33,133 nt of DNA from an uncultured Anaerolineales bacterium (GTDB lineage: Bacteria; Chloroflexota; Anaerolineae; CG2-30-64-16), in the NCBI GenBank assembly GCA_964647225.1, contig CAZYHE010000002.1, positions 1,655-34,787 on the forward strand, read 5' to 3'. Below are positions 21,301-27,522 of this stretch, one piece after another. Numbering within the stretch: the stretch's first letter is position 1; the number at the start of each line of letters is the position of its first letter. A program made the translations under genes and the position numbers. The notes under the pieces are model-generated. The model was not told the origin of the DNA and did no database searches. It saw nothing but the letters and a program-made list of their open reading frames with translations.

Positions 21301-24300
21301 CTACGCACTTGGGCTTCCGCAGGTCGCCAGCAGACCGGTAGCAGGAAACCGCCGCGCCCCGCGACAGCGCACCGTCGTCAGCCCGTGGGCCGCGAGGGAC
21401 GCCTCGAAGGTGTGTGGCGTGCAAGGCAGCCGCGCCTGGTCTTCTTCCACCAGGTTAGTCTGCCACGCCTCGCCGATGTCGAAGTATGGCAGGCGCACGA
21501 TCGCCCGCAGATCCTCGCCCGCGGTCTCGGCCAGACGCAGGATGAGGCCGTCCCCATCCTCCGCGGCCTTCAACGTGAGCAGCACGACGCCGGGCGCGTC
21601 CACGCCGCAAAATGTATCGGATGCCGGCAGCGGGCCGTCCTGTGGGCCGATCACGTAGGCGGTCACGGGGCAGACGGCCGCCTCCCAGCCGAGGGCGCGC
21701 GACCGGGCGCGCTCGTGCTGGCCGTCGTGCGTGGTGATCGCGTAGCGGAAGAGCGCATCGGTCGCCTGCACGGGCTGGAAGTTGGTGCGGAAGTTGTTGT
21801 TCATCACATAGGAGTAGATGTGCCCGTGCCGCAGTTCCTCGGGGGCGCGCAGGAACGCGTGCCCATAGCCGGGCGGGGTGACGCCGTGGTGGGCTTGCGA
21901 GACGTAGCCGGGCCACAGGCCGCCCAGTTCAACGATGGGCGCTTCGAGGCTGCTCCACGCGACCCCGCCGGCCCGGTCGTGCATGCTCACCCAGTGCTGG
22001 ACGGCGTAGGCGTCGGTGTTGGTGCCCGGCAACTGGTCGCGGATCGGCTCGATCACCGCGTTGCTGGCCTCGTAGGCGAAATGGGGATCGTCAAGGGCGA
22101 AGGGGAAGGCCAGGTGCAGTTCGAGCAGCGGCGTGGCATCGCGCAGGATGCGCGTCGCCAGCTCGATCCGCTTCACCCCCTCGAAGAGCGTGATCTCCTG
22201 GGTGATCTGCGGGCAGCCGTGCGCGCTGCTGCGCACGATTAGGCTCGCCGCCACCGGCCCCGCGCTGCCGCGGCGCAGAGCGACGGCGCCAGTGAGGGGA
22301 TCGCCTCTGATGCTTGACTCCTGCCCCCTGACTCCTGCATCCTGACCCCTGGCCCCTGGTGGCTCAACGCCCGTGCGCGGATCGCGGACCACCAGTTGGT
22401 TGAACGGGTGCGGCGCGTGGGCGTCCACCCACTCCCGGCCAAGCTCCTTGTCGAAAATGCTGCGGATCGCACCGGTGGCCGGATCGAGCGCGACCCGGTA
22501 GAAGCGGTTCTCCAGCCAATCCTCGCCGATCCGCAGGCTGCTCGCGAACTCGGGCCAGCGGTCGCAGGGCTTGTCCTGAGCACCGCCGAAGGGCTTGTCC
22601 TGAGCAGTGTCGCAGGGCTTGCCCTGAGCGCCGTCGCAGGGCTTGTCCTGAGCAGTGTCGAAGGGCCGGAGGCGGTAGGCGCGATAGCCGAGCGGTGGGA
22701 GGTCATGGGCCAGGAAAACAAGCTCGCACAGATGGCTCCGCTGGTAGTTGAGCGCGGGATGGCTGTGGGCGTCGGTGTGGCCGAGCGCGTAGTGCTGCGC
22801 GGCCCAGGGTTGCGCAGCCAGCGGGTCGTCCAGGATGTTGACCTGGCACGGGACGACCGCGCCGGTCGCCACGTCTACCAGTTCGACTTGTCCTGAGCAC
22901 CGCCGAAGGGAGGGACGCTCCAACAGCTCGGCCGGCAGGCTGACCCACGGCCGGCCGAGGATCGAGCTGGACACGCGCTGCGCGGGCGCGCCGGGCTGGC
23001 TGCCCGGCCGCCAGTAGAACGGCCGGCTGGCCGGCTCGGCCGCGCTGGCGCGCGCCCGTACGATGGCGTCGCGCGGCCAGTTCAGCGGGTTGAAGACGAC
23101 CAGGTGATAGCCGTCATCTGGCAGCCGGACCTGGTCGGCGATGCGGTGGGCGCTCTTGGTGAGGACATCGTGCGCCAGGGCCGCGCCGCGATAGGCAAGC
23201 TCGCCCTTCTGGCTCCAGCACGCATCCTGGGCCGGCCCGATCGGTTGGGCCATGCCCCAGGTGTGCTCGTCGTAGAGCAGCGCGCAGTCGTAGGCTTCGG
23301 CCAGCGTATCGGCCGGATAGATATAGTCGCTAACCGAAGCGGCGCATGCAGCCAGCTTCTCGGCCGAGCCGAGCAGGTCGTGGGTCAGGCGGTTGACGCC
23401 GGTCTCGCGGGGCGTGCTGATCGCGCCGACCGTGTAGTCGGTGTTCGGGAGGTCGCCGCGCAGCACGGGCAGGCGGTCGCCGGCGGCCCGCTCGAATTGC
23501 TCGAAGAACGCCGTGTTGGTGGAGACGATCAGCCGGGGATAGGCCCAGCGGTCGTTCCATTCGCAGGCGATCCGGCTGAGCCGGACGTCCGGCGGCGCGT
23601 TGTCGCGGTTGGCACCGTGGAACTTCACCCGAACCAGGTCGTGCGGATAGCCGCCCTCGGTCAGCCCGGCGAGGTAGCGCGCGAGGTTGGTCTCGGCCTG
23701 GTCGCAGGTCCACAGCCCCGGCCCGCTGATGGTGCCGCCCGCATACCAGAAGAGCACCCGCTGCCCGTCCGGCCCTTCCCACCAGAACGCGCCGGGCAGC
23801 TTGCGCGGCAGGATCGCCTGCTCGTCCCAGTGCGGATGTACGGTCATGCCCCAGGCGAAGTAGTCGGGGATGCCCGCCGCGAAGTAGCGCACGCCGGCGC
23901 CGGCCAGCACGCTCGCCAGCCCCCAGGAGACACCGGGGATGTCGTTCAGTTCGGCGGAGCGGATGGGGACACCGAAGCGCCGGGCAAGAGCGAACGCGGG
24001 ATAGAGCAGCCGCACCTGCTCCTCGTGCCCGCACAGTTCGCTCGTCTCGTTGCCCAGCAGGGCGGTCAGCTCGATGCGCCCCGCGCGCAGCCAGCGCGCC
24101 AACCGCTCGACGGTCTCAGGCGGCCGGTGTTGGACGTAATGCTGCACCGACCACGCCTGCTCGATCACATAGCGGAAGCGGGCTTCCTCCGGCCAGTCGG
24201 CCGTCTCGTCGCAGCCATCCAGGACGGCATCCAGAAAGGTGTCGTGCTCGCGTAGAACGTTGCTGGGCAGGTCGGTGTAGCCCAGGTCGTGGTGCGAGCC

Positions 24301-24687: not shown

Positions 24688-27522
24688 TCACTGACCCGCC
24701 GGGCCAATGCGCCACGATGCCTCAAGCGCCGCGGCCGGGTTCCCCGTCGCGTCCAGGAAGAGATAATCGGTTGGGTCGTCCGGCCGATAGAAGAAAACCT
24801 CGAACCTGTACTTGTCCTGAGCACCATCGAAGGGCCGGCCCGCCGCCGGGGGCACGCGCAGCGTGTGCGTAGTCGTGATGGTCGCCGCACCCTGCCAGTC
24901 GCGCACCAGGTCGCGGCCGCCGCTGAGCGCCCGGTCGTCCTGCGCCGCCATCTGCCCGGCCGCGTCGAGGAGGCGGGCGCTGATGCTGTAGTCGCTCGCG
25001 GGCCGGTCGAGCAGCCGCCAGGGGAGGGTGACGGTGACGGTCTGGCCCCCCGCGACCGCAAGCTCGGCGGTTTCCACTCCAGTTGCAAAGATCATGGCGA
25101 GACCCGTCGTTTGGGTCAAAGCAATCTCGCCCGCCGCGGCCTGAATCGCCAACAACTCCGTCTCATTCATCGCCGCGGTTACCGCCACCTCCTGCACGAA
25201 GGGCGGCGCGGCCACCCGCGCATCATCGGCCGCCAACCGCAGCCGCTGCGCGTGCGCGCCGCCGGCCGGCGGTCGGGGCAGATCGAGGGGGATCACGCTC
25301 CCCGCGTCCACCAGCAGCGGCAGGCGGACGCGCACCTCGAACGACTGGCCGGACGCGCCCCCGGCTGCTTGCCACGCGCCCCGCACGCGCAGCGGCAGCC
25401 CCGGCGGGATCATGATCTCACGCCCACCCGGCGCGGCCAGAAGCAGAAAGGCCTGACCGTCGGCGGTACTCCAAAAACGGCCGGCCACGGGGCCGATGTT
25501 CGGTGACGCCGGCGGCAGCCGATAAACCCATTCCGGGCCAAACTCCCGTTCGAGACGGACGCCGGACATCCCTCGCGTAGCGAACACATCTCGCAGCGCG
25601 GCCGCCCGCCCCGGCGCAAACGCCTCCATCACCGCGCTGTGGACGATCACCCGCTCGACCCCCAGCCCTCCCAGCAGCGCCAACGAGCGCGCGTCCGGGA
25701 AATGCGCCAGCGTCAGCCCCAACTCGCGATGGTGCGGCGGCACGAAGCCGCTGTAACCGTCGGCGGTCGGCTGCCAGTGGCCGGTCTGGAAGTATTGGTA
25801 GCGCAGCAGGTTGTAGTCGGGCCAGGCGAGCGACGACGCTTCGGCAAACCCGACATTCGCTAAGCCTGTCGAAGCGCCCGCCAAGGGCCGCGGCAGCGAC
25901 GCCATTTCCGATGTCAGCGGCAGCTCGATGATCGTCGTGGCTGGCTGCTCCGCCAGCCACGCGTAGAGCGGCGCGGTCGCCTGCCGGGCGGGCGGCATCG
26001 GCTGGACGGCGAAGCGGCCCAGCCCGCCCGCATACTCAGCCAGGATCAGCAGCGCCAGGGCGGCCGTCACAATGTAACGCAATCTGCCAGCTTGCCCGTC
26101 TCCCCGCCGCAATCTAGCAGATTGCGTTACAACGGTGCGCGCGCCCAGCGCCGCCAGCATTGCCAGCGCCAGGAAGGCCGAATTGGCAAAACGCCCCGGC
26201 GCGCGGATGGCGGTCATGCCGGGCACATGCTCATAAAGCCAGCCGAACGGTAGCGCCAGCCCGCCGGGATCCGCCGCGGTGAGCTTCAATTGCGGGCCGA
26301 GCGACAGAATGACCGCGGTCAGCACCAGCAGGAACCAAAAGCCGCGCCCCAGCCCGGTCTGGGGCCGGCTGCGCCGGATCAGCAGTCCCAGTGCGGCCAA
26401 CCCCAGGACGACTACCCCCGGAAACAGCCCGCCCTCAGCCGACGCCCCCCCCGGCAGCGCCCGGTAGAACGGGTTGGCGACGGGCGGCCGCACCCATTCC
26501 GCCAGCGTGGCCGCGTTGCGCAACGTCTCTCCGATCGAACGCTCCAGCCCCAGCTCGCTCCGCACGCGCAAGTAGGGCGCGGCGAATGGCGCGATCAGCA
26601 CGGCGGCCAGCGCGATCCACGGCAGCATGGCGATGAGACGATGTACAATGTAAGATGTACGATGTAGGATGTACGATGTAGGATGTACGATGTAGGATGT
26701 ACGATGTGTGGCCGATGGCTGATTCCTGCCCCCTGCCCCCTGCCCCCTGCCTCCTGACTCCTGACTCCTGCTCACCACCCGCGCCCCCACGTACAACCCC
26801 ACCGCCAACGCGACCTGAAAGCCATAATAGAACGCCGAGAGGGTCTGGAAGGCTGCGCACAGGGCAAAGAGGAAGCCATCCCGCGGCCGGCCGCGCGTCC
26901 AGAAGCGATCCAAGAAGAGCAACGTCAGCGGCAGCCAGGCGATGCTCAGCAGTTGGAGTTGGCTCAGGTGGCCGAACTGATGGGGCGAGAAGGCATAGAT
27001 CAGGCCCGCGAGGCACGCCGGAAGCCGGTGGCTCGTCATCCGCAGCGCCAGCAGGTATGCGCCGAGGCCCGCCAGCGGGAAGGCCGCCAGGAAAAAGAGG
27101 TTGTAGACAAGCACCGGGTTGTCGGTAGCGGCCAACAGCGGCACGGTGAGCGGCGAAATCGGCCAGAGGATCTCGGAGAAGGCCAGCGCGTTCGGCAGGG
27201 GATGGAAGATCGGCGCGTCGAACAGCGCCCACGGCGCGCGCGGGAGAATATGCGCCTGCCAGGCGATGATCCAGGTGTTGAGCGCCGTATCCGAGCGGTC
27301 GTGCAGGCCCGCGCCGAGCTTGGGGAGGAGCGGCGCAAAGAGCAGGAGGGTCAGAGCGATGTAGGTCAGGAATGCCGGGAGCGATCCGCAGATGAGCGCA
27401 GATGGACGCGAAAACAGGCGGCCGGCATGGCCCGGTATCCGGCTTGCTGCTGGTTTTGTGGTATCATCGTGTCGCAACACAACACCTATCCATGAGGTCA
27501 AACCCAATGCCAACCCCATCAC
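24688..27522 (-). CDS. Large polytopic membrane protein (about 11 TM segments plus a ~430-aa C-terminal soluble domain); GT-C-like glycosyltransferase candidate
   Basis: Hydrophobic segments run throughout the first ~500 aa. There is an acidic first loop (GLHDRSDTALNTW), and the C-terminal domain contains GYSGFVPPHH. The start is uncertain: ATG 27522 would overlap the divergent phosphodiesterase start. Heptamer arrays are embedded at 26641-26768. Confidence 0.5.
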   Translation of the reverse strand: MMGLALGLTSWIGVVLRHDDTTKPAASRIPGHAGRLFSRPSALICGSLPAFLTYIALTLLLFAPLLPKLGAGLHDRSDTALNTWIIAWQAHILPRAPWALFDAPIFHPLPNALAFSEILWPISPLTVPLLAATDNPVLVYNLFFLAAFPLAGLGAYLLALRMTSHRLPACLAGLIYAFSPHQFGHLSQLQLLSIAWLPLTLLFLDRFWTRGRPRDGFLFALCAAFQTLSAFYYGFQVALAVGLYVGARVVSRSQESGGRGQGAGGRNQPSATHRTSYIVHPTSYILHRTSYIVHRLIAMLPWIALAAVLIAPFAAPYLRVRSELGLERSIGETLRNAATLAEWVRPPVANPFYRALPGGASAEGGLFPGVVVLGLAALGLLIRRSRPQTGLGRGFWFLLVLTAVILSLGPQLKLTAADPGGLALPFGWLYEHVPGMTAIRAPGRFANSAFLALAMLAALGARTVVTQSARLRRGDGQAGRLRYIVTAALALLILAEYAGGLGRFAVQPMPPARQATAPLYAWLAEQPATTIIELPLTSEMASLPRPLAGASTGLANVGFAEASSLAWPDYNLLRYQYFQTGHWQPTADGYSGFVPPHHRELGLTLAHFPDARSLALLGGLGVERVIVHSAVMEAFAPGRAAALRDVFATRGMSGVRLEREFGPEWVYRLPPASPNIGPVAGRFWSTADGQAFLLLAAPGGREIMIPPGLPLRVRGAWQAAGGASGQSFEVRVRLPLLVDAGSVIPLDLPRPPAGGAHAQRLRLAADDARVAAPPFVQEVAVTAAMNETELLAIQAAAGEIALTQTTGLAMIFATGVETAELAVAGGQTVTVTLPWRLLDRPASDYSISARLLDAAGQMAAQDDRALSGGRDLVRDWQGAATITTTHTLRVPPAAGRPFDGAQDKYRFEVFFYRPDDPTDYLFLDATGNPAAALEASWRIGPAGQ
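24811..24835. repeat. Family-A repeat copy inside the membrane-protein gene (C-terminal domain)
   Basis: CTTGTCCTGAGCACCATCGAAGGGC, two mismatches from the GH38 unit. Translated as PFDGAQDK. Confidence 0.75.
25859..25877. repeat. Family-A half-unit inside the membrane-protein gene
   Basis: GCTAAGCCTGTCGAAGCGC, one mismatch from the left arm at 16401-16418. Translated as GASTGLA. Confidence 0.55.
26641..26710. repeat. Heptanucleotide tandem array (10 units, ATGTASG) inside the membrane-protein gene
   Basis: ATGTACA ATGTAAG then (ATGTACG ATGTAGG) x3, ATGTACG, ATGTGTG. Translated as HRTSYIVHPTSYILHRTSYIVH. AT-rich against the GC-rich background. Confidence 0.85.
26720..26768. repeat. Heptanucleotide tandem array (7 units, TGNNYCC) inside the membrane-protein gene, 9 nt from the ATGTASG array
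   Basis: TGATTCC TGCCCCC TGCCCCC TGCCCCC TGCCTCC TGACTCC TGACTCC, the same unit family as 22315-22356. Translated as SQESGGRGQGAGGRNQ. Confidence 0.85.

Follow-up and report, generated by a model that had tools for sequence, protein, structure and literature searches.

The window analysed here is a stretch of 33,133 nt from an uncultured Anaerolineales bacterium of the Chloroflexota (assembly GCA_964647225.1, contig CAZYHE010000002.1, positions 1,655 to 34,787). Its minus strand carries a gene (24688..27522) for a multi-pass membrane protein of predicted GT-C fold (YfhO/PTPS_related-like) with C-terminal beta-sandwich domains, the longest open reading frame (ORF) of which codes for 944 amino acids (aa). 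Two adjacent arrays of heptanucleotide repeats are embedded in this gene, for which the original prediction had proposed a role as a slipped-strand frameshift switch. In the NCBI annotation of this 34,787-nt contig, the gene is represented by a single 930-aa protein (P0121) which starts at 27480 and includes the arrays.

The layout of the arrays is correct to the base as it had been described: ten units of the type ATGTASG (26641-26710) are followed, after 9 nt, by seven units of the type TGNNYCC (26720-26768). On the plus strand, the first array reads ATGTACA ATGTAAG, (ATGTACG ATGTAGG)x3, ATGTACG, ATGTGTG, with seven perfect and three imperfect units. The intervening 9 nt are GCCGATGGC, and the second array reads TGATTCC, TGCCCCC x3, TGCCTCC, TGACTCC x2, after which a degenerate eighth unit follows. 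Tandem Repeats Finder reports both arrays with period 7 (10.0 copies at 26638-26707 and 6.7 copies at 26725-26771), the first of them having 96% matches at period 14. A three-unit pattern is matched six times compared to 0.00 expected matches (100 shuffles), so that the tandem length is beyond chance.

On the coding strand (minus), array A (26641..26710) consists of ten ACATCST heptamers in which ACATCGT and ACATCCT alternate, and it codes for the peptide HRTSYIVHPTSYILHRTSYIVH. The spacer (26711..26719, minus strand) reads GCCATCGGC, and the closest orthologue, L007, shares the block AGCCATCGGCCAC. Array B (26720..26775, minus strand), with its seven heptamers (AGGAGTC/AGGGGGC) and the degenerate eighth, codes for SRSQESGGRGQGAGGRNQ. 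The arrays lie in a variable loop between two transmembrane helices (26626..26790, minus strand), which has 165 nt here and 60 nt in its ancestral form, a net gain of 105 nt (15 heptamers, 35 aa).

The coding strand was claimed to be free of stop codons, and it is indeed open in all three frames across the arrays; the opposite strand has stops in all three. Since 7 and 3 have no common factor, an array of at least three units is read in all three phases, and only the stop-free strand survives in an ORF. The orientation is thus a necessary filter instead of the design feature for which it had been taken. The same point has been made for TAACTGA heptamer repeats, of which only the stop-free strand is possible inside ORFs (MacGregor, PMC4679880). 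The alternative-frame ORF (26435..27232) which was said to be open across the arrays is present on the minus strand. It is the frame that a variant with one additional unit or two missing units would read, yielding a truncated product of 357-364 aa, and it is no gene in itself. The claimed truncation was reproduced by simulation: a change by one or two units in either array leads to products which end at 306-364 aa, while a three-unit change restores the frame (937 or 951 aa). Folding of the mRNA across the arrays shows no excess stability (z = +1.1). For this reason, and because arrays A and B are not complementary, a hairpin or a riboswitch-like RNA was rejected.

The arrays encode residues about 251-297 of the host protein, and the tract is thus found mid-gene, 27% along. 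In the AlphaFold2 model (mean pLDDT, the predicted local distance difference test score, 71), values below 50 occur at residues 256-286, between the helices 233-258 and 282-323; residues 282-297 are modelled as an extension of the following helix. The intragenic position in a loop could thus be confirmed, with both arrays inside the ORF 24688..27522 and in a low-pLDDT stretch between helices. Homologues of 837-1026 aa align end to end with the host protein, which argues for one gene instead of two. A split gene with a 646-aa protein starting after the arrays was considered and rejected, as the protein concerned (P0002) originates from a contig of the Logan assemblies which begins inside the array. 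The proteins P0013 and P0014 (651-661 aa) were likewise rejected as cases of splitting by arrays; their frameshifts are elsewhere and unrelated to repeats. Homologues are split by frameshifts at L015:4440-4460 (a T6 run) and at L016:2480-2500 (a nearby indel), both in ENA assemblies, and these are probably long-read assembly errors.

A glycosyltransferase-like host had been postulated, and a Foldseek search with the model agrees with this assignment, its best full-length matches being the GT-C proteins DPY19 (7zli), STT3 (7oci_F, 6s7o_A, 8b6l_I) and EmbA/B (7bvc). The TM-scores are 0.32-0.36 (query) and 0.45-0.49 (target) for DPY19 and STT3, and lower for EmbA/B. According to the model, the protein has a multi-pass N-terminal membrane domain with a predicted GT-C fold and is glycosyltransferase-like. 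At the profile level, PF10131 (PTPS_related) scores 23.4 bits by hmmscan (cut-off 26.4) and 26.7 bits in a six-frame search, the YfhO profile is weak (18-20 bits), and no NCBIfam profile matches the host protein. Some homologues carry PF09586, PF10131 or PF19830. The motif GLHDRSDTxLNTW, located after the first transmembrane helix, is conserved among the aligned homologues; it is suggestive, though only that, of a putative transferase role. The ancestral loop is rich in Arg, as are two further loops inferred to lie on the same side, and the array loop is thus probably cytoplasmic according to the positive-inside rule.

The relatives of the host gene are found in metagenome-assembled genomes (MAGs) from Anaerolineae. 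The source genome (G000) is the sole member of its genus among the species representatives compared. The loops were cut out via their conserved flanks from about 25 assembled orthologous loci of genomes and metagenomes. The ancestral (empty) loop of 60 nt is present in at least 12 loci (among them L001, L004, L015, L016, L017, L019, L029, L033, L034 and L037), which belong to several genera, and encodes LLVRLVTAPNRNTVRRLTAL or a similar peptide. Five lineages, in the clade nearest to the window, bear arrays: the window itself (165 nt, net +105 nt), L007 with 85% aa identity to the window (144 nt, net +84 nt), L008/L020/L021 (102 nt, net +42 nt), L014 (102 nt, net +42 nt), and L011 (138 nt, net +78 nt). 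All of the about 25 recovered loops, including those from these five lineages (at least 12 contigs), are in frame and free of stop codons. The net insert is a multiple of 21 nt in four of the five lineages, the 78 nt of L011 being the exception. An identical loop is found in at least seven contigs from different samples of one species (P0003 and variants).

The comparison with L007 is particularly informative. Array A has ten units in the window and seven at the same place in L007, a difference of 21 nt. Array B has equal length and register in both, but the AGGAGTC/AGGGGGC units of the window are replaced by AGTTGTC/AGTCGTC in every unit. Such a uniform change of the unit is a signature of concerted evolution in a tandem array. 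Concomitantly, the peptide changes from SRSQESGGRGQGAGGRNQ to VVSCQLSVVSCQLSVVSRQ, which argues that the loop is constrained in its frame and not in its sequence. The peptide repeat TSYI(V/L)H is common to the window, L007 and L011, and has a degraded form in L008. The locus thus adds a clear orthologous series with the empty site, growth by 21 nt at a time and a unit that has changed in concert. Slippage by one or two units, on which the proposed switch was based, is not reflected in these data: L007 differs from the window by three units, four of the five inserts are multiples of 21 nt, and there is no OFF allele among the recovered orthologous loops. This corresponds to the pattern which the original prediction itself had named as a refutation. 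A dedicated switch at this locus is thus not supported.

The two arrays are members of a family that is distributed over the whole source genome, a short-read MAG of 4.95 Mb in 756 contigs with 64.6% G+C. At a threshold of at least 4 copies, G000 has 183 heptamer and 145 octamer arrays; at a threshold of at least 3.5 copies (7- or 8-nt units), there are 504 arrays in 416 clusters. The top heptamer families are ACTCCTG (27), AATGATG (24), AATACGC (21) and ACCCCTG (18), and ACATCGT has 4. Of the heptamer families in the genome, the one to which array B belongs is the commonest. The octamer family is as abundant as the heptamers (CCAATCTA/TTGGTAGA, GTCACCCT and others). Adjacent array pairs are inverted, and thus able to form hairpins, in 51 of 88 cases, mostly between co-directional genes; the pair formed by arrays A and B is not.

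The placement of the arrays was assessed with a codon-usage classifier trained on the long ORFs of the genome. A preference for genes had been brought up as a question together with the original prediction, but the arrays are depleted from coding sequence: 22% of the clusters are in an open coding frame compared to 44% of random positions. They are found between same-strand frames that differ in 28% of the cases (random positions 4%) and between divergent genes in 0.3% (random positions 0.4%). A stop of the upstream gene is located before or inside the array in 90 of 97 same-strand, different-frame clusters. This position of the upstream stop was used in place of an argument from a 2:1 frame ratio for intergenic arrays, which was dropped as the random control departed from the underlying assumption. 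Within genes, about 76 clusters keep the frame, and the pair in the window belongs to this intragenic minority. In the host ORFs, matches to 158 Pfam families are found, among them class I tRNA synthetases, UvrB, Tex, MgsA, molybdoenzymes and penicillin-binding proteins; essential genes are thus also affected. On/off switching of genes of this type cannot be the purpose of the repeats.

The vocabulary of units is lineage-specific. Of 36 genomes from the same family, 12 contain the sequence (AGGAGTC)3, which is found in none of 24 other families of the class; its reversed control is absent from the same family. In G055, there are more than 100 matches to the reversed control CTGAGGA x3, which is a different heptamer family. 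A shared vocabulary restricted to a lineage argues for spread or maintenance of the units over independent slippage of random sequence.

Given these data, we consider it likely that the two arrays constitute a compound heptamer array, similar to the short tandemly repeated repetitive (STRR) sequences of cyanobacteria, which is translated as a tolerated disordered loop and is subject to turnover by slippage under selection for the reading frame. The two arrays would represent one compound heptanucleotide simple sequence repeat (SSR) from the genome-wide family of about 500 arrays with 7- or 8-nt units. It may have lodged, in an ancestor of the species group, in a loop of the GT-C-fold protein that is short, little conserved and probably cytoplasmic. 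It would be transcribed and translated as a low-complexity disordered loop of roughly 44 residues which the enzyme tolerates, the loop itself being probably neutral. Units would be gained and lost by replication slippage or unequal exchange, and variant units would sweep through the array. Purifying selection would let pass only lengths that keep the frame (steps of 21 nt) and the stop-free orientation. Out-of-frame variants must arise under this scenario, but would be purged as a mutational hazard and not be maintained as an on/off device.

Several findings weigh against the interpretation as a tolerated loop. The classifier on which the genome-wide placement is based is rough, as only 44% of random positions were scored inside an open coding frame. 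Given its length and its near-perfect units, array A is physically expected to slip at a high rate. Arrays persist in the same loop across lineages of 65-85% identity, for which selection for mutability is conceivable. Moreover, 9 of the 27 GT-C-like (PMT_2/YfhO/PTPS_related-like) open frames (54.9 kb) contain array clusters. These nine frames hold 11 clusters, about 7 of them clearly internal, whereas the intragenic average predicts about 1 (Poisson P about 8e-5), and the enrichment of GT-C genes as array hosts is thus about 7-10 times the intragenic average. They are located on C2, C27, C58, C123, C278, C298, C311, C450 and C508. Finally, the GT39/PMT_2 gene at G000:C123:485-556 is frameshifted inside a compound heptamer array. 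This array (AGGAGTC-type followed by ACTACGC-type units) is net 28 nt (4 units) longer than that of the 87%-identical, full-length relative P0245/L122, with more AGGAGTC-type units and two fewer ACTACGC units.

A second out-of-frame gene of G000 codes for IorA (indolepyruvate:ferredoxin oxidoreductase alpha; G000:C227:5999-6065) and is split at GTCAGGA x8 into an ORF with POR_N and an ORF with TPP_enzyme_C and Fer4. Its relatives (79-85% identity) are intact, with an in-frame array and about 14 residues (RSPYLRANLERRR) which are missing in G000. The breaks on C123 and C227 indicate that slippage by unit numbers which are not multiples of three does occur in G000, or that it arises during assembly. 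As to the hosts, the loops of GT-C proteins are either exceptionally permissive for arrays or exceptionally favoured. Multi-pass membrane proteins taken together show no significant enrichment, making up 22% of hosts and 15% of controls (P = 0.09).

Additional observations were made on these genes. More distant relatives of the GT39 gene on C123 have other arrays in the same loop. The IorA gene of G000 carries a duplicated insert of the 24-nt type (PEPAEGARFDQLSAR x2). Two matches to DUF2298 membrane proteins are found among the host ORFs.

The enrichment among GT-C genes and the frameshifted GT39 gene, which is out of frame by 4 units with respect to a close relative, also belong to the evidence that may be quoted for a true contingency locus. 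In this case, slipped-strand mispairing by numbers of units not divisible by three would switch the GT-C enzyme off and on and thereby vary the envelope glycan, for example as an escape from phages. The array has the required properties: its heptamer period is not a multiple of three, the 10 units of array A are near-perfect, a change by one or two units truncates the protein and three units restore it, and any later slip can restore the frame as the arrays are open in three frames. Intragenic heptanucleotide SSRs with frameshifts have been proposed as mediators of phase variation in Haemophilus influenzae (PMC2651432). In addition, the contigs L025, L026 and L045 break at the arrays, but this is expected of any repeat which exceeds the k-mer of the assembler. 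At the locus itself, however, the frame is kept in all five lineages with arrays (at least 12 contigs), and the differences correspond to three units or multiples of 21 nt. Genes for tRNA synthetases, UvrB and IorA, the switching of which cannot be adaptive, harbour the same repeat families, and most arrays of the genome are intergenic. The tract is far from the 5' end of the gene, being located mid-gene (27% along), and the Arg-rich loop is probably cytoplasmic. We thus regard a contingency locus as unlikely. The more specific proposal, that arrays are preferentially retained in the loops of GT-C glycosyltransferases as contingency tracts which stochastically switch envelope glycosylation of a free-living, filamentous bacterium (e.g. 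against phages), with 26641-26768 currently in the ON state, is equally unlikely. If it were true, free-living Chloroflexota and glycosyltransferases that depend on polyprenyl phosphate would have to be added to the known range of phase variation by SSRs.

The inserted peptide might be functional by itself, either through metal binding by a His/Tyr-rich repeat, through binding of a partner, or as a spacer. The TSYI(V/L)H repeat that is common to the window, L007 and L011 (and degraded in L008) would fit to this, as would the helix extension modelled for residues 282-297. However, most family members have a 20-residue loop without any insert, the copy number varies among relatives (10, 7 and about 5 units), and the adjacent array encodes unrelated peptides in close relatives. 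The same type of peptide is obtained wherever this DNA unit is translated. We consider a function of the peptide quite improbable.

A role at the level of the nucleic acid is very improbable as well. Array B could form a G-quadruplex (G4), or the arrays could cause pausing of transcription or translation for membrane insertion or regulation. On the sense strand, array B has three G5 tracts (AGGGGGC x3) flanked by GG tracts, the arrays directly precede a long transmembrane helix, and formation of G4 in vitro is known from the G-rich heptamer SSRs in Xanthomonas and Nostoc (PMC4692102). Nevertheless, there are only three long G tracts, L007 has AGTTGTC in place of the G-rich unit, other relatives are devoid of arrays, and the predicted RNA does not adopt a stable secondary structure (z = +1.1).

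That the arrays are an artefact, that is a mis-assembled or chimeric repeat which is absent from the organism, can practically be dismissed: although the MAG originates from short reads (756 contigs), repeats commonly break or distort assemblies, and 16% of the array clusters are within 300 nt of contig ends compared to 9% of the genome, the ORF is intact, the independent Logan assembly L045 of the same strain, which starts inside array A, matches the last 45 nt of that array and its flank exactly, and homologous arrays are found at the same codon position in independent metagenomes (L007, L008, L011, L014, L020, L021). The same sequence is also present in SRR12261224. In the two closest relatives, L025 and L026 (89% and 86% aa identity), the contigs end 50-70 nt before the position of the array. 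A run of N is found in the array of the MutS2 gene on C23. For annotation, it is relevant that short-read assemblies break at arrays of this kind and that gene callers can be misled by them.

Other inserts are present in the host gene, its homologues and its neighbourhood. In the C-terminal domain of the host protein, a 24-nt insert (24811-24834; CCCTTCGATGGTGCTCAGGACAAG, encoding PFDGAQDK) is common only to the host and its closest relative P0001 and is absent from all others. The homologues P0011, P0005 and P0034 have 7-aa peptide repeats in other loops (TLNLQPS x4, EAPVGSV x5) or an insert resembling hairpin repeats, which shows that the colonised loops differ from lineage to lineage. In the neighbouring GH38 gene, there is an in-frame array of the CCTGACT type (22315-22358, 42 nt) with the peptide GARGQDAGVRGQES, as well as a 24-nt x 4.4 array (22561-22666) which is translated into GAQDKPCD repeats.

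Repeats of this kind are already known, both as long heptanucleotide SSRs and as STRR sequences (PMC4679880, PMC4692102, PMC6749651). Heptanucleotide SSRs of cyanobacteria, Xanthomonas, Burkholderia and Beggiatoaceae form a known class which is functionally unexplained. No published description of heptanucleotide SSRs in Chloroflexota was found. With its empty 60-nt site, its growth by whole heptamers in multiples of 21 nt and the sweep of a variant unit, the locus is a clean natural experiment. It illustrates how fast repeat DNA writes arbitrary loops into a conserved enzyme. The over-representation of GT-C genes as hosts is a further addition.

The resemblance to known systems that had been suggested holds for the STRR sequences, as there is an STRR-like heptamer family distributed over the genome, and is only partial for contingency loci, all recovered loci being in frame. 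The STRR heptanucleotides of heterocystous cyanobacteria were reportedly described by Mazel and colleagues in 1990 (via PMC4692102). Their units are CCCCAGT (STRR1), TTGGTCA (STRR2) and CAACAGT (STRR3). The arrays described here share with them tandem 7-nt units, a small common vocabulary, many dispersed and mostly non-coding copies, and their occurrence in related genera. They differ by their host, a member of the Chloroflexota (Anaerolineae) with 65% G+C, by the units at the locus (ACATCST and AGGAGTC are not among STRR1-3), by the in-frame translation of the copy at the locus, by the equally large octamer family, and by the frequent inverted pairing. One inverted pair of G000 (C630:1848-1975) has the STRR1 unit, (CCCCAGT)n, in its second arm; its contig has a G+C of 64%, as has the genome.

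Among the long SSRs of prokaryotes (5-11-nt units), heptamers are the commonest class (Mrazek, Guo and Shah 2007, as summarised in PMC4679880). Heptamer SSRs are abundant in Xanthomonas and Nostoc, where most copies are non-coding and positions between aligned ORFs are preferred (Rehm et al. 2015, PMC4692102). In line with these reports (PMC4679880, PMC4692102), heptamers dominate among the arrays analysed here, there is a non-coding excess, co-directional ORFs are favoured, and positions between divergent genes are rare. The variable copy number is also similar to that in Xanthomonas and Nostoc, as are the G-rich units (GGGGTCA/GGGATCA here, GGGAATC/GGGGAYT there). In those studies, coding copies were rare and excluded, while G000 has about 76 in-frame clusters and compound arrays which change their unit in concert. 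The TAACTGA repeats of marine Beggiatoaceae (MacGregor 2015, PMC4679880), for which horizontal spread is suspected, are also heptamers distributed over the genome which occur in ORFs only in the stop-free orientation and yield a 7-aa peptide (LSVISYQ) at permissive positions. However, they consist of a single unit, are mostly located just upstream of start codons and have been proposed to act in translation control. The arrays of G000 represent many unit families, are mostly found at the 3' ends of genes or in intergenic regions, and often form hairpins.

In Haemophilus influenzae, heptanucleotide SSRs are found in the promoters of hmw1A/hmw2A, and intragenic AATTTTG and AACAACC tracts are associated with frameshifts (Power et al. 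2009, PMC2651432). The locus in the window resembles these contingency SSRs by a unit that is not a multiple of three inside an ORF, by the shift of frame upon a one-unit change, and by an envelope-related host gene. It differs from them in that no OFF allele occurs among the recovered loci and no change by a number of units other than a multiple of three is seen at this locus. Also unlike contingency SSRs, the family extends beyond genes for surface or restriction-modification functions, the tract is located mid-gene, and the host organism is free-living. The palindromic elements of Rickettsia and similar selfish repeats are discrete elements of about 100-150 bp with a fixed sequence which are inserted in frame into genes. 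Both there and here, repeat DNA has colonised permissive loops of unrelated proteins and is translated while the hosts stay functional. Unlike those elements, the repeat at this locus is a tandem array, the length and unit sequence of which keep changing.

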